Shown here piece by piece: positions 42,969 through 58,843 of a stretch of DNA of 64,000 bases. The DNA comes from an uncultured SAR86 cluster bacterium (lineage in GTDB: Bacteria > Pseudomonadota > Gammaproteobacteria > Magnimaribacterales > D2472), in assembly GCA_902557575.1 (NCBI GenBank), contig CACEAR010000001.1, positions 470,674 to 534,673 on the forward strand. Reading direction: 5' to 3'. Made by a program: the position numbers and the translations under genes. The notes under the pieces were generated by a model. It saw only the letters and a list, made by a program, of their open reading frames with translations, was not told where the DNA came from and ran no database searches. Each line of letters opens with the position of its first letter. Position 1 is the stretch's first letter.

Positions 42969-43043
42969 TGGCTGGGGTGGTAGGATTCGAACCTACGCAT
43001 GACGGGATCAAAACCCGTTGCCTTACCGCTTGGCCACACCCCA
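42969..43043 (-). tRNA. tRNA-Gln(TTG), 75 nt
   Basis: TGGGGTG/CACCCCA acceptor (U1:A72), anticodon arm ACGGG-TTTTGAT-CCCGT; canonical ispE-tRNA-prs position. Confidence 0.97.
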
Positions 43044-43962: not shown

Positions 43963-45192
43963 ATGCAAGAAATTCACCTAGTTGGAATAAACCATAAGAC
44001 CTCAAAGGTTTCGGATAGAGAAAGATTTATCGTTGATGACACAAATCTCGTTTATCTAAATGATTTTCTAATTTCAAAATTAGATAAAAAGATTTCTGGT
44101 TTTTTTGGCCTTTCTACATGCAATAGGACTGAAATATATTTCTATGGAGACAAGGGCATAGAGGATGATGTCCTAAAGCTAACTAAGGAGGCTCTTAATA
44201 TTTCTGATATACCTGATAAAAACTTTTATATTTATGAGGGTTTAAAAGCATTTGAGCATATGTGTAGAGTTTGTTGCGGCATAGACTCTCAAGTGGTTGG
44301 GGAGCAAGAAATATTTGGACAATTTAAAAACGCATATAACTCAGCCAAAGCTTTTAGGATTGTTGGGAAAGAACTTATGATTTATGTTGAAAAAGTTTTT
44401 GAAATTACAAAAAAAGTAAGAACTGAAACAAAGATAGGTATAAATCCGTTATCTGTGAGTGGCTTATCATTCAACCTCGTAAAGGAAATATTTGAGAATC
44501 CTGAAAACAAGGAAGTCCTTGTAATTGGAGGAGGAGATTTAGCAAAATCTATAATTAAAAACCTCTTTGACAAAGGCTTGAGGTCTATTTCTGCTATAAA
44601 TAGAACTATAAAAGAAATAAAGATATCTGAAGATTTTTCTATAATTCCGATGCCTCTAAATCTAGTACATAGAGAAATTATTAATGCTGATATTATTATT
44701 TGCTCTGCATCAAGTCTTACACCAATTATTGGTAAAGGAGCAGTTGAAAATGCATTTAAAAATAGAGGAAACAAACCAATGATGATAATAGATTTGGCTG
44801 TTCCTAGGAATGTTGAGCCAGAAATAGAAGATTTAGAACTGGTTTACTTGTTTTCAATTGATGATATCGAAAAGATTTCTCAAGATAATCTTGAAGAAAG
44901 ATTGGTTGAAGCTGGAAGAGGAAAAGAGATCATCAAATATCAAGCCTTAAAATCACATAAAACTATTAATTCAAAGATAGAAGATGACAAATTTGCTTTT
45001 GAGATATTAAAACTTCTCAAATCTTTAGATGATAAAAGAGTATATGAACTTTCCAATGACAACGACATAAATTTAGAGTTTTTAAATCTTGTTGAAAATA
45101 CAAACAATATTCAATTATCAGAAAAGCTTAGAAAAAAAATTGAACTTATCGATGGCCAAAAACTTATTTCAATAATTTCTAATTATAAATAA
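43963..45192 (+). CDS. hemA: Glutamyl-tRNA reductase (divergent C-terminus)
   Basis: GINHKT, STCNRTE, GIDSQVVGEQEIFGQ, KKVRTET, DLAVPRNVE. Confidence 0.92.
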   Translation: MQEIHLVGINHKTSKVSDRERFIVDDTNLVYLNDFLISKLDKKISGFFGLSTCNRTEIYFYGDKGIEDDVLKLTKEALNISDIPDKNFYIYEGLKAFEHMCRVCCGIDSQVVGEQEIFGQFKNAYNSAKAFRIVGKELMIYVEKVFEITKKVRTETKIGINPLSVSGLSFNLVKEIFENPENKEVLVIGGGDLAKSIIKNLFDKGLRSISAINRTIKEIKISEDFSIIPMPLNLVHREIINADIIICSASSLTPIIGKGAVENAFKNRGNKPMMIIDLAVPRNVEPEIEDLELVYLFSIDDIEKISQDNLEERLVEAGRGKEIIKYQALKSHKTINSKIEDDKFAFEILKLLKSLDDKRVYELSNDNDINLEFLNLVENTNNIQLSEKLRKKIELIDGQKLISIISNYK

Positions 45193-46283
45193 TGCAAGAT
45201 TCTATTGAGGCAAAGCTAATAAAACTTTCAGAACGCCTTTCGGAAATTGAAAAACAATTAATTGAGGAATCCTCAACTTTAAATCAAGATGATTTAATTT
45301 CATTAAATAAAGAGTTTTCGCATATTCAACCTATTGTTGATCTTTATTACAAGTATCTAAAGGTTCTCGATGAAAATACACAAGCAATAAGTCTTTCAAA
45401 GTCTGATGAAAATGAAATTAAAGAATTGGCTCAAATAGAGGTTGAAGAAACAGAAAACTCAATGAATGAAATCCTTGGAGAACTAAAGTTAATGCTTTTA
45501 CCAGTTGATGAGGATGATGAAAGATCAGCTTTTTTAGAAATCAGAGCCGGAGCAGGAGGAGATGAAGCTGGGATTTTTTCAGGTAACTTATTTCGGATGT
45601 ACTCTAGGCTAGCAGAAAGGGAAAAATGGATTATTGAAATTATTTCCCAGAAAGATGCAGAGCATGGAGGCTTTAAAGAAATAATTGCAAAAATATCAGG
45701 AAAGCTAGTCTACAAAACACTTAAATTTGAATCGGGAGTTCATCGGGTTCAAAGAGTTCCTGAAACTGAATCACAAGGTAGAGTCCACACATCAACATGT
45801 ACCGTTGCTGTCCTTCCTGAGGCAGAAGAAATAGATGATATAGAGATAGATAAATCAGAAATAAGAGTAGACACTTTCAGAGCGTCTGGAGCAGGGGGTC
45901 AGCATGTTAATAAAACTGACTCAGCTGTAAGAATTACTCATCTTCCAAGTGGTTTGGTTGTAGAGTGTCAAGATGATAGGTCGCAGCACAAAAATAAGAC
46001 AAAAGCATTATCCCTCTTAAGCGCCAAGTTAAAAAAACAGGAGGAAGAAAATCAGCAAGCTGAAATAGCTTCTGAGAGGAAGATCCTTGTAGGCTCAGGT
46101 GATAGAAGTGAAAAAATTAGAACTTATAATTTTCCTCAAGGAAGAGTTACTGACCATAGAATTAAACTTACCCAGCATAATCTTGATCAAGTAATGGATG
46201 GAGATATAAGATCTATCAGCGATGCCTTAATAGCAGAAAATCAGCTAGAAATGCTTGCTAAGCTTGAATTAGATAATAAATGA
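45192..46283 (+). CDS. prfA: Peptide chain release factor 1
   Basis: EIRAGAGGDEA, KFESGVHRVQRVPET (PxT), GAGGQHVN, RTYNFPQGRVTDHRI. Confidence 0.99.
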   Translation: MQDSIEAKLIKLSERLSEIEKQLIEESSTLNQDDLISLNKEFSHIQPIVDLYYKYLKVLDENTQAISLSKSDENEIKELAQIEVEETENSMNEILGELKLMLLPVDEDDERSAFLEIRAGAGGDEAGIFSGNLFRMYSRLAEREKWIIEIISQKDAEHGGFKEIIAKISGKLVYKTLKFESGVHRVQRVPETESQGRVHTSTCTVAVLPEAEEIDDIEIDKSEIRVDTFRASGAGGQHVNKTDSAVRITHLPSGLVVECQDDRSQHKNKTKALSLLSAKLKKQEEENQQAEIASERKILVGSGDRSEKIRTYNFPQGRVTDHRIKLTQHNLDQVMDGDIRSISDALIAENQLEMLAKLELDNK

Positions 46284-47062
46284 AGTCTGAAAAAGGTATT
46301 GATCTTTCTGAATTAAGCTTTGAGACCAAAAGGGACATAAATTTCTACATAAAAGAAAAATTTAAAGACTCATCTAAATTTAATCAAAGTCAAATCAATA
46401 AAATAGAAAATGTTGCTAAATCTTTAGAAGAAGGATACCCGAGGGATTACTTAATTGGAAACTCTGAATTTTATGGAAGAAAATATTTTGTAGATCAAAG
46501 AGTTCTTATTCCAAGACCTGAAACAGAAGTTCTTGTGGATACCATAAAAAGTTTAAATTTATCTGATGGCTCAATTCTATGTGATCTTGGAACAGGATCA
46601 GGATGCATTGGCATTTCTTTAGCAATGTTAAATGAGAGTTTCATTGTATTTGGTGTAGATATTTCTGAAGAAGCTATTTTAGTTGCAAGAAAGAATGATC
46701 TAACTTACATGAAAAAAAATTTCTTTTTAATACAATCAAACTGGGCTTCATGTTTTCAAGAAAATTCTATCGACTGCATAATTTCTAATCCTCCATATAT
46801 TGATAAAGATGATTCTCACCTAGCAGATCTAAAGCATGAACCATTACTAGCCCTTGTTTCTGAATTACACGGGCTACAAGCTTTCGAAATTATTTCTCAA
46901 CAAGCCAAACAATTACTTAAGAAAGATGGATTACTGCTACTAGAGCATGGCTTTGATCAAAGCGAGCATGTTGAGAAAATTATTTATAAAAATGATTTAA
47001 AATTAATTAGAAAGATAAAAGATCTATCAGGAAATGATAGAGTGATATTGGCGCAAAAATGA
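46280..47062 (+). CDS. prmC: Release factor glutamine methyltransferase
   Basis: VLIPRPETE, DLGTGSG, SNPPY, LEHG, DLSGNDRV. Confidence 0.95.
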   Translation: MKSEKGIDLSELSFETKRDINFYIKEKFKDSSKFNQSQINKIENVAKSLEEGYPRDYLIGNSEFYGRKYFVDQRVLIPRPETEVLVDTIKSLNLSDGSILCDLGTGSGCIGISLAMLNESFIVFGVDISEEAILVARKNDLTYMKKNFFLIQSNWASCFQENSIDCIISNPPYIDKDDSHLADLKHEPLLALVSELHGLQAFEIISQQAKQLLKKDGLLLLEHGFDQSEHVEKIIYKNDLKLIRKIKDLSGNDRVILAQK

Positions 47063-47796
47063 ACTTAGATTTTTTTGAAAAACAGTTACTAATAGATAAT
47101 TTCTCCGAGAAATTACAAAAAAAGATCTTTGATACAAATTGTCTTGTAATCGGAGGTGGTGGCATTGCTCATCCGCTACTCACCTATTTAGTTTCGACAG
47201 GTTTTGGAAATATTTCAATTGCTGATGGTGATAAGGTAGAGCTATCAAATCTTCACAGACAATACCATTTTAATGCAAGCGATCTCAATAAAAGAAAAGC
47301 AGAAGTCTTGAAAGAGAAATTTAAGAATGAGTACGAATTTATTGATATTAAATCAATAAATAAATTCCTTGAGGAAAAAGATCTATTCGAATTAATTGAA
47401 CATCATGATTTGATTTTTGATGCATCTGATAATTTCCAAACAAGATATATCTCTAATGATGTGTGTCATGAGCATAAAAAACCCTTAATATCTGGAGCAG
47501 CAGAGGGGATGCTAGGAATTGTTGCTGCTTTTAACTTTAAAGAAGATTCACCTTGTTATGAGTGCCTATTCCCAAGAAACTATGACTTAAATGAAAATAC
47601 CTGCCAAAACTCTGGTATTACACCTTCAGTGCTGGGCATAATTGGGTCTTTTATGGCTTCAATTGCTCTAAAAATAATTGCTGATAATGCATTTAGGAGT
47701 TCGGTAATGCGTATAAATTTAACTGATCTTAGTATTTCTCAGCCAAAACTTAAAAAAGATGTATTGTGTAAGATTTGTGGAGAAAACAAAGGATGA
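47059..47796 (+). CDS. moeB: MoeB/ThiF-family adenylyltransferase
   Basis: GGGG Rossmann loop, DGDKVELSNLHRQ, DASDNF, CYECLF and CKICG zinc motifs; follows prmC as in Pseudomonas. Confidence 0.85.
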   Translation: MNLDFFEKQLLIDNFSEKLQKKIFDTNCLVIGGGGIAHPLLTYLVSTGFGNISIADGDKVELSNLHRQYHFNASDLNKRKAEVLKEKFKNEYEFIDIKSINKFLEEKDLFELIEHHDLIFDASDNFQTRYISNDVCHEHKKPLISGAAEGMLGIVAAFNFKEDSPCYECLFPRNYDLNENTCQNSGITPSVLGIIGSFMASIALKIIADNAFRSSVMRINLTDLSISQPKLKKDVLCKICGENKG

Positions 47797-48836
47797 TAAC
47801 AGGCTATATTGAGGGATATTATGGTGTTGAACTATCTTGGAAAGAGAGAGATTCTATAATATCTAAACTTCATCAGGTCGGATGCAACACTTATTTTTAT
47901 TGCCCGAAAGAGGATCCTTATCATAGAGTTAGATGGAAAGATGATTATCCAATTGATTGGATAGATGATTTTAAAAAATTCAAGTCTAATGCAGATAGTG
48001 CTGGAATTGATATTATCTTTGGCATTTCTCCGGGCGCATCTTTGGAGTTAAAAGATTTTGAACATTTAGAAAGAAAAATAGGCATCTTTAAGGAGCTATC
48101 TATTGAAAATTTCTGTATTCTTTTTGATGATATTCCTAAGGAAAAAGAGCAATTCTCTCTTCATAAAGAAGTGCTTGAACTTTGCTTAGAAAAGTTTCCA
48201 AATATTAATTTTTCTTGTGTGCCGTCACAGTATTGTAAATACATGGTTGAAAATTCTAATAATTCTTATTTAGCAGAATTAGATAAAGTTGATACAAGTA
48301 TTCCTTTCTTTTGGACAGGAAATCAAGTTATAACATCCAATTATTCTGATAATAATATTGATAGTTGGAAAGAGTTGTTTCGTAAGGATAGAGACTTAAT
48401 AATTTGGGATAATACTTTTGCGAATGACTATTGTGTTCCTAAGATTGTTATGCAAAATTTTGATGGCTTTTTTTCTAAAGATGATAACAAAGTATCTGGG
48501 TTTCTCTTAAATGCATCTGGTATAGAGTTAATAGATCTTATTGCTATTGAAATATTAGACAATGCATTAAAGGAAAAACAAATAATGCTAGATGATATTC
48601 TAAAAGATAGAGGCTTTCCTAAAGAACTTATTAATTTAAGTAATTTTTTTAAAATAAACATTTCATCGAGTTTTACAGATGATGAAAAAAAAGATTTAGA
48701 TTTCCTCCTCTGGAACTGGAATGGAAAAATAAAAAAGTTTTTTTATCCATACCTCCATCAACTCAACCAAATTTTTAATGAAACAGATAAGCATGAAATA
48801 AATGGTTTAAAAAAGCGCTTTCGCATTAAACAATAA
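47793..48836 (+). CDS. GH84 beta-N-acetylglucosaminidase (O-GlcNAcase-like), no signal peptide
   Basis: GYIEGYYG, YCPKEDPYHR, ISPG, LFDD (catalytic pair), PSQYC, WTGNQV, WDNTFANDY; ATGA overlap with moeB. Confidence 0.88.
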   Translation: MITGYIEGYYGVELSWKERDSIISKLHQVGCNTYFYCPKEDPYHRVRWKDDYPIDWIDDFKKFKSNADSAGIDIIFGISPGASLELKDFEHLERKIGIFKELSIENFCILFDDIPKEKEQFSLHKEVLELCLEKFPNINFSCVPSQYCKYMVENSNNSYLAELDKVDTSIPFFWTGNQVITSNYSDNNIDSWKELFRKDRDLIIWDNTFANDYCVPKIVMQNFDGFFSKDDNKVSGFLLNASGIELIDLIAIEILDNALKEKQIMLDDILKDRGFPKELINLSNFFKINISSSFTDDEKKDLDFLLWNWNGKIKKFFYPYLHQLNQIFNETDKHEINGLKKRFRIKQ

Positions 48837-48891: not shown

Positions 48892-49206
48892 ATGAGTGAA
48901 GTTCCAGTATATGTTGTAGCAAATATCGTAATCCAAGATCCTGATACTTATAAAAAATATGAAAAAGGATTCTTTCCGATATTAAAGAAATATGAAGGTA
49001 AGTTCATTACTTTTGACGATAATATTGGTCAACTTGAAGGAAGTTCTGAAGTTTCTGGCAGAGTTATAATTTTTTCTTTTCCAAATGAAAACTTAGCCGA
49101 TCAATGGTATAGCAGTGTCGAATACCAAGAATTAAGTGCTTTTAGAAGAGAGGGCACTGATACCATTTCAATTTTTAAAGTTAAAGGACAACCACCAAGA
49201 AATTAA
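48892..49206 (+). CDS. DUF1330 family protein
   Basis: VYVVANIVIQDPDTYKKY, LEG, VIIFSFP, WYSSVEYQ pattern. Confidence 0.8.
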   Translation: MSEVPVYVVANIVIQDPDTYKKYEKGFFPILKKYEGKFITFDDNIGQLEGSSEVSGRVIIFSFPNENLADQWYSSVEYQELSAFRREGTDTISIFKVKGQPPRN

Positions 49207-49219
49207 GGGAGGAATAATT

Positions 49220-50839
49220 ATGTTATTAGGAGATATGCAAGACTGGAAACCAAATGTTGCAAGCATTATAGAGTATGCTGCAGATATTTATCCTGAGTCT
49301 GAAGTAGTAAGTAAATTAGTAACTGGCGAAGTCCATAGGACTAACTACAAAGAGGTATGTGTTAGATCAAGGAAGTTAGCTTCAAAACTTTCTCAAGATG
49401 GTTATAAACAAGGAGATGTCATCGCTACTCTTGCTCTAAACACATTTAGGCATCTTGAGGCATATTATGGTGTTTCAGGAATGGGCGCAGTTGTTCATAC
49501 TTTGAATTTTAGATTACATCCCGAGCAGGCAGTTTACATAATTAATCATGCTGAAGATAAAGTAATCTTTGTTGAGGCACCTTTTGTTCCTATCCTAGAG
49601 GCGCTTCAAGAAAACCTTAGCACTGTTGAGAAATATATTGTCTTTTGCAATAAAGATGAGATGCCTGAGACTTCTCTTAAAAATTGTTTGTCATATGAAG
49701 AATACATTGAAGATGGTGATGAAAATTTTGTCTGGCCAGACCTTCCTGATAATGCAGCTTGTGGACTTTGCTATACATCGGGCACAACAGGAAATCCAAA
49801 AGGAGTTTTATATTCACACAAATCGACTATTCTTCACGCAATTTCAGCAGCTGGACCAAAGGCTTTAAAAATTGAAGGAGATGACTCTGTTTTAATGGTT
49901 GTTCCTATGTTCCACGTTATGGCATGGGGAGTTCCATACTATGGTGCAATTTATGGACTTAAAATTGTAATGCCTGGAATGGCAATGGATGGTGAATCTC
50001 TCTATGAAATGTGTAAGGAGGAAAAGGTAACACTTGCCTTTGGGGTGCCAACAGTTTGGATGCAGCTGTTGGGCTATTGTAGAGAAAATAATGTTGTCCT
50101 TGAATCAATGAATAGTACTGTAATAGGAGGTTCAGCAGTAACAGTAGCAATGATAAAAGAGTTTGATCAAGTTCATGGAGTAACCGTTCTTCAAGGATGG
50201 GGTATGACTGAGATGAGTCCTCTTGGAACAACAAATTTCCCAACCCCAGAAATGGAGGAAATGTCTGATGATGAAAAGTATGCAATTCAAGTTAAAGCAG
50301 GTAAACCTGTTTTTGGTGTAGAAATGAAGATAGTAGATTCTGATGGTAACACTCTTCCAAATGATGGTAAGGCTTCAGGAAGCTTATTAGTAAGAGGCCC
50401 TTGGATTATTAAAAAATATTTTAAAGCTGAGGAGGACGCTGTAGATAAAGATGGCTGGTTTGATACGGGTGACATATCTTCAATAGATCCAGATGGATAT
50501 ATGTCTATTGTTGATAGAGAAAAAGATGTCATTAAATCAGGCGGCGAATGGATTAGTTCAATAGATGTCGAAAACGCTGTAGCTAGTCATCCAGACGTAA
50601 TGCAAACAGCAGTTGTTGGCATTCCTCATCCAAAATGGGATGAAAGACCACTTTTATTTGTTGTTTCTAATTCTGGTAATGAAATTAATAGAGAAGAATT
50701 AGATGAATTAATGCTAAAGAAGTTTGAAAAATGGCAACTTCCTGATCAGGTAGTCTTCTTAAAAGAATTGCCAATAGGTGCTACAGGAAAGGTGAAAAAG
50801 ATCGATTTAAGGGAAGAATATAAAGAGCACTATATGTAG
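49220..50839 (+). CDS. Medium/long-chain acyl-CoA ligase, AlkK/DmdB-like (start ATG 49220)
   Basis: [47 protein letters not shown]; SD GGAGG. Confidence 0.93.
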
Positions 50840-50848
50840 GAGAACATT

Positions 50849-51307
50849 ATGCCAATGACATTTGTAAAACCTGAAGAATTAGATAGTTATGTTGGTAAGT
50901 CGCTTGAACCTAGTGAGTGGCTGACTATTGATCAAGAAAGAATAAATAATTTTGCCGATGCGACTAATGATCATCAATTTATTCATGTTGATCCTGAACA
51001 AGCTGCACCAATATTTGGATCAACAATTGCGCATGGATTTTTATCATTATCTCTGACTTCGGGAATGGGAGAGGAAAATGCTTTAGTTGTTGAGGGCTCA
51101 AAAATGAGTCTAAACTATGGATTAGATAAAATTAGATTTCTTGCACCTGTTCCTGTAAATTCTAGAATAAGAATGCACTCAAAGATTGTAGAAGTTAAGG
51201 AAAAGAACCCAGGTCAATTTCTTATTAAAAGCGAAGTTACTATGGAGCTAGAGGGCTCCGAAAAACCAGCCTTTATTGCTGAACAACTTGGTCTTTGGGT
51301 CACTTAA
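50849..51307 (+). CDS. MaoC-family (R)-enoyl-CoA hydratase/dehydratase
   Basis: FADATNDHQFIHVD, TIAHGFLSLSL, NYGLDKIRFLAPV. Confidence 0.92.
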   Translation: MPMTFVKPEELDSYVGKSLEPSEWLTIDQERINNFADATNDHQFIHVDPEQAAPIFGSTIAHGFLSLSLTSGMGEENALVVEGSKMSLNYGLDKIRFLAPVPVNSRIRMHSKIVEVKEKNPGQFLIKSEVTMELEGSEKPAFIAEQLGLWVT

Positions 51308-56881: not shown

Positions 56882-58843
56882 ATGAAAAATGCTTTTTTAT
56901 TAAGGTTTTTGTTGGTGATTTTTTCACCACTTATATTTATTTCATTATTGTATTTTTTGTTTCTAAGTAAGCCTGAGCTTTTTTCTGGGAGTTTTGAAAG
57001 ATATAAGTATCAAGATTATTCATTTAGCTTTAAAAAGGTAGTTACAAACAAGAATCCCCTATATCCAGAATTGATATTTGAAGATGTTGTTCTCACAAAT
57101 AAAAATGAGGGTATTAAGATTATTAATCTTAAGATAGGCCTCAACATGCTTGGATATTTTTTTGATGATCTGAAAAGAATAAAATATTTAAAAATATACG
57201 CAACGCAAATTAAAACAGAGAATTATATTTCGCTACTCCCAGAAAACTCTATCGCACTGAAGAATAATTTATTAAACATAATTGATGATGGCAATATCGA
57301 AGAGCTATATTTTGAATTTATAGATGAAGCTGATATCAGCATTAATAATGAATTAATAATTTCAGACGTAATTCTTAATTTAGGATCTGAAAGAAAATTA
57401 ACAACTAAACGAGCATACATAACTGCAGACCCCCAAGAAGTTAAGATAAAACTAGACAAAGGTTCATTCGAAGACCTTCCATTTGAAGAAATTTCTGGAT
57501 TCTTAAATGTAGATACAATGCAATTGAATTATATTTCTTATCACAAATCTATTAATGAATATGCTGAAAATATTCTTCCGCTGGGAGTTTTAAACTTTAA
57601 AAATGATATTCAGCTGTTCACAACAGGTTTTGCTGACTTCAAAAACAACAAAAATAAGAATTTTGGTTTTATAAGTTTTCAAGACCTTTCAGATATTAAA
57701 TATCTACAAGATGGATTTAATATTAAGACTAATATATTTATTGAAGACTTTAATAATGTATTTTCACAAAATTTTATTTCTTTCAATGAACTCAAGATAA
57801 ATCTATATCTGTCTGGTAATGAAATACAAAATTCATCTGCATTCAATTTCTTTTCAGATAAAGATTCCGGTGTTGAGCTATCAGGAAGCTTCAATGAAGG
57901 AAATCTCACTTTAGATTTTAATAGTGAAAATCTTAAAGGATCTTTAGTTAGAGATGATTCAAGCTTTTTTAGAATTAATCTTTATGACTCAAATATTAAT
58001 TTTAATTTTGGGGATTCAGAAGAAGATAATTTTATTCTTCCAAACTTAAAGTTCAGGGTAACAGGAGAAAATGTTAGTTTTAATGATGCAATATTCAACT
58101 CAATAGATTTTTATTATCTAAAGAATGGGGATGTTCTCACCTTAAATGATATAAATATCGATAGTGACTTTTTGAAAATATCTAATTATGAAAATGAGCC
58201 TGCTTATTTTTCTATTAATACAGCCCGAGATTTTTACAAAATTAAAGGTTTATATGAATTCAATAATATTAAAGAAGCTTTAAAGCTTAAAAATTTTCCA
58301 TCAATAAATTATTTTAGGTCGAATATAAATATTCAGTGGAACAATCTTCTAGAACTTAGAAATATAGAAGGAAGCATGGATTTTTTAACTAAAGATTTCC
58401 AAATAAACCAAAAAAATCCGAACTCAGCTTTACTAAATCTAATCGGCTTGTTAAACATTCAATCATTTTTTGATGGTTATGACGGATCGTCAACAGATGA
58501 ATATATCAAGTTTAAAAGAGGGAGCGGAAGTATAATCTTTTCTCAAAATTATGGGAGGATTGTTGATGACTTTTCTTTTGAGGCTGATTTCGGAAATATG
58601 GATTGGAATGGCTTTATTATCAAAGATAATGCTGGTTCTTTTGAAAAGTTAGATCTTGAACTATCTTTAAAATTAAATCTTCAAGAAAATATACCATGGT
58701 ATGCAGCTATTTTTGGTGGTCTTGGCGTAGCTGCTGGAACAGCAATTATTGGAAATGTTTTTGAAGATCAGATTGAAGATATTTCAACTATAGAATACTC
58801 AGTGAAGGGACCGCTGAATTCTCCAAATCTAGAAAGGTTATAG
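56882..58843 (+). CDS. yhdP: YhdP-like AsmA-family intermembrane bridge protein, about half length (653 aa)
   Basis: N-terminal TM anchor, beta-rich body, AsmA-like C-terminus ending YSVKGPLNSP; position after mreD. Confidence 0.7.
   Translation: MKNAFLLRFLLVIFSPLIFISLLYFLFLSKPELFSGSFERYKYQDYSFSFKKVVTNKNPLYPELIFEDVVLTNKNEGIKIINLKIGLNMLGYFFDDLKRIKYLKIYATQIKTENYISLLPENSIALKNNLLNIIDDGNIEELYFEFIDEADISINNELIISDVILNLGSERKLTTKRAYITADPQEVKIKLDKGSFEDLPFEEISGFLNVDTMQLNYISYHKSINEYAENILPLGVLNFKNDIQLFTTGFADFKNNKNKNFGFISFQDLSDIKYLQDGFNIKTNIFIEDFNNVFSQNFISFNELKINLYLSGNEIQNSSAFNFFSDKDSGVELSGSFNEGNLTLDFNSENLKGSLVRDDSSFFRINLYDSNINFNFGDSEEDNFILPNLKFRVTGENVSFNDAIFNSIDFYYLKNGDVLTLNDINIDSDFLKISNYENEPAYFSINTARDFYKIKGLYEFNNIKEALKLKNFPSINYFRSNINIQWNNLLELRNIEGSMDFLTKDFQINQKNPNSALLNLIGLLNIQSFFDGYDGSSTDEYIKFKRGSGSIIFSQNYGRIVDDFSFEADFGNMDWNGFIIKDNAGSFEKLDLELSLKLNLQENIPWYAAIFGGLGVAAGTAIIGNVFEDQIEDISTIEYSVKGPLNSPNLERL

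Follow-up and report, generated by a model that had tools for sequence, protein, structure and literature searches.

A short cytoplasmic GH84 glycosidase of SAR86 marine bacteria as a candidate NagZ analogue in muropeptide recycling

A 64,000-nucleotide stretch of the genome of an uncultured SAR86 cluster bacterium (GenBank assembly GCA_902557575.1, contig CACEAR010000001.1, positions 470,674 to 534,673; hereafter the window) contains a gene for a predicted β-N-acetylglucosaminidase of glycoside hydrolase family 84 (GH84), the family that includes human O-GlcNAcase (OGA). A prediction made earlier from the sequence alone (the original prediction) proposed that this protein is the eraser of a reversible intracellular O-GlcNAc system co-expressed with translation factors, and offered as its alternative an enzyme that recycles N-acetylglucosamine (GlcNAc) or peptidoglycan fragments in place of NagZ. 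The alternative is the better supported by our analysis. The two lines of evidence in its favor are a cluster of muropeptide-recycling genes around the closest relatives of the SAR86 gene and the published distribution of ampG and nagZ in SAR86. We propose that the enzyme is a cytoplasmic, exo-acting hydrolase of GlcNAc-1,6-anhydro-N-acetylmuramic acid (GlcNAc-anhMurNAc) analogous to NagZ, an assignment that we judge evenly poised between right and wrong; we infer its substrate, and hence its pathway, from the gene context of a sister clade and from a gap in the pathway that is apparent in published data.

The SAR86 GH84 gene and its product

The gene and the parts of its product discussed below are the following, all on the + strand.

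47793-48836, +: predicted GH84 β-N-acetylglucosaminidase gene, 347 residues plus stop (Pfam, PDB, AlphaFold2 and Foldseek)
47793-48527, +: (β/α)8 catalytic barrel, residues ~1-245 (DSSP strands E2-7 through E236-240; Pfam 4-243)
48126-48131, +: codons GAT GAT of the catalytic pair D112-D113, equivalent to D174/D175 of human OGA and aligned to lfDDi
48405-48434, +: WDNTFANDYC (W205, N207, D212, Y213, C214), the sugar-binding wall, whose trailing cysteine is a mark of the subfamily
48528-48833, +: OGA-stalk-like C-terminal helical bundle, residues ~246-347 (helices H245-259 through H333-342 in the AlphaFold2 model)
GH84 residues 4-11: GYIEGYYG
GH84 residues 36-45: YCPKEDPYHR
GH84 residues 110-113: LFDD
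GH84 residues 144-148: PSQYC
GH84 residues 174-176: WTG

The original description of the gene is confirmed by the sequence, with two corrections given below. The open reading frame (ORF) of 347 codons is present and its translation starts MITGYIEGYYG. Its start codon (ATG, 47793-47795) and the stop codon (TGA, 47794-47796) of an upstream 245-residue ThiF/MoeB-family ORF overlap in the sequence ATGA. Each motif quoted in the original prediction is present at the residues listed above, with WDNTFANDY at residues 205-213. There is no space for a signal peptide because barrel strand β1 begins at residue 2, and the sole alternative start, a TTG at 47775, would lengthen the protein by six residues. 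The absence of a carbohydrate-binding module (CBM) also holds, as PF07555 (NAGidase) is the only Pfam domain found.

PF07555 is matched over residues 4-243 with 172.4 bits (cut-off, 25; E = 1.8e-50), so the assignment to GH84 is far above chance. PDB chains of GH84 enzymes are matched at E of ~1e-25 with the single sequence as query and 2e-61 with a family profile, the best sequence matches being the O-GlcNAcases of Clostridium, Bacteroides, human, Oceanicola and Thermobaculum. The NCBIfam model of a full-length secreted ‘GlcNAcase’ covers only the catalytic core of the SAR86 protein. A profile search of a 5.8-billion-protein set returned members of the family again and no named distant relative.

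In an alignment of 74 full-length homologues (A1), 31 columns are invariant, among them G8, Y9 and G11. The invariant positions also include K39, D112, D113, Y147, N207, D212, Y213 and N240, which align to the active site motifs of human OGA. A further conserved patch lies near the C terminus (L306, W307, W309, Y318 and Y320). Loss of the catalytic aspartates in orthologs, a possibility that the original prediction had raised, is not seen, as D112-D113 is retained in all 74 homologues. The protein is a genuine member of the family that looks active, with its catalytic residues intact.

The composition of the gene is that of its surroundings, with a G+C content at third codon positions (GC3) of 0.22, the same as in neighboring genes, in a window of 33.8% G+C. 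The ratio of nonsynonymous to synonymous substitution rates (dN/dS) is 0.10-0.18 against relatives at dS 0.07-1.5, and the gene is functional, native and under purifying selection. It occurs in the same context, at 87-98% identity, in seven SAR86 single-cell or metagenome-assembled genomes. Horizontal transfer was considered as a cause of the unusual location of the gene but is rejected, given its native composition and a synteny that extends across the lineage.

Among characterized enzymes, the family profile scores highest with the catalytic and stalk regions of human OGA (PDB 5UHK, 5M7R and 5UN9; 211 bits, E = 2e-61), followed by CpGH84B (190), NagJ (185), TtOGA (185), BtGH84 (174) and OgOGA (160). 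It aligns to the human motifs GFYG, PKDD, LFDDI, CPTEYC, WTG, WDNIHANDY and NPN; the SAR86 and human enzymes have GxxEGFYG, PKxD, LFDDI, CPxEYC, WTG and WDNxxANDY in common, with the NxN asparagine aligned. The SAR86 protein lacks the pseudo-HAT domain and disordered insert of human OGA, its stalk is much shorter, and NDY is followed by a cysteine where human OGA has an aspartate.

The secreted enzymes NagJ and CpGH84B from Clostridium perfringens and BtGH84 from Bacteroides thetaiotaomicron share the family, the catalytic aspartate pair and the fold, but are multidomain proteins (N-terminal domains, CBM32, FIVAR or cohesin), carry the motif WWNxPVxDY and occupy a separate branch of the tree. 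In the alignments, human OGA has WDNIHANDY and CPTEYC, whereas NagJ and CpGH84B have WWNYPV(T/N)DY with VPTEYD or VPVEYW, which bears out the earlier remark that the SAR86 motifs are nearer to those of human OGA than to those of the secreted clostridial and Bacteroides enzymes.

The AlphaFold2 model of the protein is of high quality (predicted local distance difference test 91.5; predicted TM-score 0.92), and the top Foldseek matches listed for it are GH84 structures throughout, with a best E of 7e-22. Chains of OgOGA and human OGA superpose on it from end to end, with a query TM-score (TMq) of up to 0.80. The best full-length superposition is that of OgOGA from Oceanicola granulosus (PDB 2XSA, 2XSB and 7KHS; TMq 0.79-0.80), which is likewise a stand-alone barrel plus C-terminal bundle with no signal peptide or CBM. 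OgOGA differs in its length of 447 residues (~100 more) and its identity of only 20-21% in the structural alignment, and it gives the weakest profile match of the OGA-type enzymes. The helical bundle of the SAR86 model is short and superposes on OgOGA and human OGA. The protein is thus predicted to be a minimal two-domain OGA-type GH84 and not a bare catalytic domain, since model and Foldseek matches include both barrel and bundle. The original description of a ‘stand-alone catalytic domain’ is right in that there is no CBM or other Pfam domain, but it overlooked the stalk-like bundle formed by residues ~245-347.

The profile ranking, the WDNxxANDY and xPxxYC motifs shared with human OGA, the barrel-plus-bundle layout of OgOGA and human OGA, and the cytoplasmic location would all suit an eraser of protein O-GlcNAc acting in a reversible intracellular cycle with an O-GlcNAc transferase (OGT) of family GT41, like the cycle of eukaryotes and the one proposed for Thermobaculum terrenum. 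The ranking depends on the query, however, as the single SAR86 sequence scores human OGA (86 bits) and NagJ (86-91 bits) equally. A cytoplasmic bacterial GH84, TtOGA from Thermobaculum terrenum (PDB 5DIY), is matched by the family profile over residues 3-317 and has been reported together with a functional OGT, whereas no OGT is evident at the SAR86 loci examined.

Recycling genes in a sister clade and the SAR86 pathway gap

The exact protein of the window has no record in the contig index, and its context was compared through homologues. We gathered ~100 GH84 loci from genomes and metagenomes and classed them by tblastn; 71 are of SAR86 type with enough upstream DNA for their context to be compared. 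A neighbor-joining tree of the catalytic domain separates the SAR86 proteins (clade A; 344-357 residues; 78% bootstrap support) from a second clade (clade B; 367-384 residues; 95%). The two are joined with 70% support, and together with a group of higher-GC relatives (X) with 98%. Eukaryotic OGAs branch next outward and the clostridial enzymes lie outside. All members of A, B and X have WDNxxAxDYC, with the cysteine at the position of the human aspartate. These proteins form an uncharacterized subfamily of short cytoplasmic GH84s, which belongs to the core of both SAR86 and the lineage of clade B.

Clade B genomes have 27-29% G+C. The H+-pyrophosphatase gene found two genes downstream of their GH84 is 93% identical to that of a ‘SAR116 cluster bacterium’ and 87% to that of ‘Candidatus Levibacter’ (Puniceispirillales), and because of these identities we place clade B by sequence as a low-GC, SAR116-related alphaproteobacterial lineage. 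The same matches rule out SAR11, a guess made from the G+C content of 28%; a literature search on SAR11 with anmK found nothing relevant.

In clade B, GH84 is part of a block of genes encoding AnmK, a PIG-L deacetylase, GH84 and an HIBADH-like protein, present in all ten loci (nine distinct contigs). A murQ-like SIS gene precedes anmK in seven of the ten, and an AmpG gene, adjoining one for a YkuD L,D-transpeptidase, follows 4.6-5.8 kb downstream of GH84 in four, which are all the loci that extend so far. NCBIfam identifies MurQ as a MurNAc-6-phosphate etherase with 259 bits (NF003915; cut-off 168) and AnmK with 344 bits, and TIGR00901, the model for muropeptide transporters of the AmpG family, is matched at 350.8 for a cut-off of 350. 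The block is unchanged even where AnmK identity between clade B members drops to 40-49%, and no GH3 NagZ is seen in these loci by tblastn with the Escherichia coli protein. The clade B cluster holds all cytoplasmic steps of anhydromuropeptide catabolism bar NagZ, and GH84 is placed where a GlcNAcase is needed.

The surroundings of the block are less constant. Upstream, it borders a hypervariable sugar/lipopolysaccharide (LPS) island, whose nucleotide-sugar, NeuB and aminotransferase genes are different at each locus (L014-L018, L023 and L024, ~0-8 kb). What stays the same is the anmK-PIG-L-GH84-HIBADH block and, downstream, the H+-pyrophosphatase, YkuD, AmpG and Wzy_C genes.

The members of group X (44-57% G+C) have other neighbors. 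At three loci (L087, 9926-13233; L091, 4473-7717; L098, 5380-8612) GH84 is followed by a SprT-like gene and then by histidyl-tRNA synthetase, the SprT-like call being a weak Pfam match in L087 and L091, the two loci whose ORF was scanned. A TPR Ser/Thr kinase gene and a type VI secretion system gene lie upstream of GH84 in L087 and L090. In L091, from an unrelated relative of 44% G+C, a gene for the exo-β-N-acetylmuramidase NamZ is located 2.5 kb upstream, which speaks for a recycling role.

For SAR86 itself, a published survey provides the second line of evidence. Of 23 SAR86 genera, 22 have ampG (K08218) and five have nagZ (K01207), the latter being Suzuki G03, G06, G09 and G10 and RedeBAC7D11 G3; HIMB1674, an isolate, carries ampG and lacks nagZ (Ramfelt et al. 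2024, PMC11582366, Suppl. Table 5). Most SAR86 would thus import muropeptides without having the canonical enzyme for the next step, a gap that a cytoplasmic GlcNAcase would be able to fill. In the window and in the ~100 loci, tblastn with E. coli NagZ gives no match. Peptidoglycan degradation by SAR86 has been proposed before (Dupont et al. 2012), and in a preprint of 2022 the GH84 of one SAR86 metagenome-assembled genome appears under ‘peptidoglycan recycling’, in passing and without analysis. We found no paper that tests or argues for a role of GH84 in SAR86 peptidoglycan recycling.

In the proposed pathway, lytic transglycosylases in the periplasm would release GlcNAc-1,6-anhydroMurNAc, with or without its peptide, and AmpG would bring these fragments into the cytoplasm. 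There, GH84 would cut off the non-reducing GlcNAc by substrate-assisted catalysis, with D112 polarizing the 2-acetamido group, which leads to an oxazoline intermediate, and with D113 serving as the general acid/base. The resulting GlcNAc and anhMurNAc could then be salvaged. GH3 NagZ carries out this step in the cytoplasm of other Gram-negative bacteria, and in clade B the GH84 sits amid the partners of NagZ, namely AmpG, AnmK and MurQ. NagZ has no homology to GH84 and a different fold, so the SAR86 enzyme would be an analogue and not a member of the NagZ family. GH3 enzymes also use a catalytic mechanism different from that of GH84.

Several points weigh against this assignment. The family profile, as described above, scores highest with a protein deglycosylase. 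We know of no GH84 for which cleavage of GlcNAc-anhMurNAc has been demonstrated, and a search of the literature likewise found none. In clade B, anmK, PIG-L and GH84 are separate transcription units, and their association may be a single inherited arrangement. The cluster does not recur in SAR86, where AnmK, MurQ, PIG-L and AmpG genes are found within 10 kb of GH84 in none of the 71 loci. The 64-kb window contains no recycling gene, and tblastn with the clade B AnmK, MurQ, PIG-L, AmpG, YkuD and HIBADH proteins found nothing beyond GH84 in the window or the SAR86 loci. Moreover, anmK and murQ are unconfirmed in SAR86, and the five genera with nagZ (PMC11582366) do possess the canonical enzyme; the window may come from either kind of genus.

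Position of GH84 in SAR86 genomes

The neighbors of the gene in the window are, in order:

43963-47062, +: hemA-prfA-prmC string, upstream of GH84
47059-47796, +: ThiF/MoeB-family adenylyltransferase gene, 245 residues (Pfam ThiF, 201 bits)
48892-51307, +: genes for a DUF1330 protein, an AMP-forming acyl-CoA synthetase and a MaoC dehydratase, co-directional with and downstream of GH84

The original prediction coupled GH84 to a hemA-prfA-prmC-moeB operon. The gene does lie within the hemA-prfA-prmC string, which is conserved upstream of GH84 in 62 of the 71 SAR86 loci, and the conserved position after prmC would also suit a protein O-GlcNAc eraser controlling the translation apparatus. The link to moeB does not hold. 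The order thiF-GH84 is found in 40 of the 71 loci (prmC being on the contig too in 39 of them), whereas in 22 others, L020, L021 and L037 among them, GH84 follows prmC without thiF; the GH84 of L037 is nevertheless 88% identical to that of the window. In the remaining nine, which belong to one SAR86 lineage, the order is cytochrome b561-GH84-esterase in an unrelated region with ceramidase and fatty-acid hydroxylase genes. Nor is the name ‘moeB’ established, because the ThiF/MoeB-family protein falls below every NCBIfam ThiF/MoeB equivalog cut-off; it may serve in thiamine or molybdopterin synthesis or in another process. thiF is a variable neighbor of GH84 and no fixed partner. The slot after prmC is old and stable in SAR86, but the link to ‘moeB’ specifically is not. 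In Pseudomonas (PA4662-PA4666) the slot is occupied by murI, as the original prediction states.

Downstream of GH84, the SAR86 loci have the acyl-CoA synthetase and MaoC genes, and other inserts vary. The DUF1330 gene (104 residues; 48892-49206) between GH84 and the synthetase is limited to the sub-lineage of the window. At more distant SAR86 loci the synthetase follows GH84 directly, sometimes with overlapping stop and start codons, and in one lineage a convergent gene for the protein AMPylase SelO is inserted between the two (L021, 8666-10147, − strand).

Start/stop overlaps of GH84 occur with whichever gene adjoins it, upstream or downstream, as expected from a compact genome. A scan of 43.7-51.5 kb found fewer promoter-like sites than in shuffled sequence and no plus-strand terminator. 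Inherited gene order in a compact genome, rather than functional coupling to translation, is the best explanation for the location of GH84 after hemA-prfA-prmC.

Some further features of the region were noted in passing. A tRNA-Gln(ttg) gene at 42969-43043 (− strand) lies between ispE and prs. The 343-residue prs ORF as called mechanically, with a GTG start at 43039, overruns this tRNA gene, so the true prs start is further downstream (~MSNGTIDIF...). A protein from NCBI (P0045; 381 residues) has the Pfam domains of Prs, yet matches 28% of GH84 at 97% identity; the probable reason is that the gene call, from a single-amplified-genome contig, is chimeric or frame-shifted. Following mreB-mreC-mreD there is a 653-residue gene (56882-58843) that is YhdP-like by a weak, sub-cut-off Pfam match, in place of the usual PBP2/RodA. 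The matching ORFs of other SAR86 loci have 783-1045 residues and no Pfam match.

Alternative substrates and implications

An enzyme of this kind could instead act on exogenous GlcNAc-glycosides imported as nutrients, such as chitobiose, chito-oligosaccharides or muropeptides from seawater. SAR86 is rich in TonB-dependent transporters, and degradation of peptidoglycan and polysaccharides has been proposed for it (Dupont 2012; Ramfelt 2024, PMC11582366), and CAZy lists EC 3.2.1.52 activity for GH84. The gene is also single and housekeeping-like, with neighbors that are often catabolic (acyl-CoA synthetase, MaoC, esterase). However, no chitinase, GlcNAc transporter or nag gene is near GH84 in any locus, and to our knowledge characterized GH84 enzymes are poor on GlcNAc-β-1,4-GlcNAc. 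We consider such a catabolic role unlikely, and where the scavenged substrate is a muropeptide it coincides with the recycling role proposed here.

The substrate might also be some other GlcNAc conjugate of the cytoplasm, such as a GlcNAc-lipid or the head group of a glycolipid, a GlcNAc-containing precursor of a low-molecular-weight thiol or an envelope-glycan intermediate. The PIG-L protein of clade B resembles the bacillithiol deacetylase BshB1 most closely, although its 89 bits fall below the cut-off. The clade B block is next to the variable LPS/sugar island with its Wzy_C, GT4 and GT9 genes, and the relocated SAR86 copy is surrounded by esterase, ceramidase, fatty-acid hydroxylase and acyltransferase genes. 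The lipid-gene context is restricted to that one lineage, though, while AnmK, MurQ and AmpG are specific for muropeptides and no partner of any specific conjugate is conserved, so that turnover of such a conjugate seems quite improbable.

Least probable, and in our view very unlikely, is the protein O-GlcNAc eraser co-expressed with translation factors, since thiF is dispensable at the locus, one SAR86 lineage has GH84 elsewhere, no GT41 was found in ~12 Pfam-annotated neighborhoods or in ten large ORFs of the window that had no other identification (whole SAR86 genomes not being searched), no paper was found that connects SAR86 with O-GlcNAc, and identical motifs occur in clade B within the anmK-murQ-ampG cluster. 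Given their presence in that muropeptide cluster, the OGA-like motifs do not indicate a protein substrate, a caution against taking such motifs in bacteria as evidence of O-GlcNAc signaling. Muropeptide recycling is the more likely of the two roles, and it is the one for which both the clade B cluster and the ampG and nagZ distribution in SAR86 argue.

Both SAR86 and the SAR116-related lineage belong to the most abundant groups of surface-ocean bacteria, and as their genomes are very small, each gene they retain is informative. If the WDNxxANDYC-type GH84 is indeed a muropeptide GlcNAcase, it would represent a non-orthologous displacement of NagZ in two abundant, streamlined marine lineages and would close the gap that the SAR86 gene tables leave in AmpG-dependent recycling. 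It would also give a physiological role to uncharacterized cytoplasmic bacterial GH84s, OgOGA included. In that case the closest relatives of eukaryotic OGA among bacteria would be enzymes of cell-wall recycling, which would suggest that the O-GlcNAcase of eukaryotes arose from a glycosidase of that pathway.

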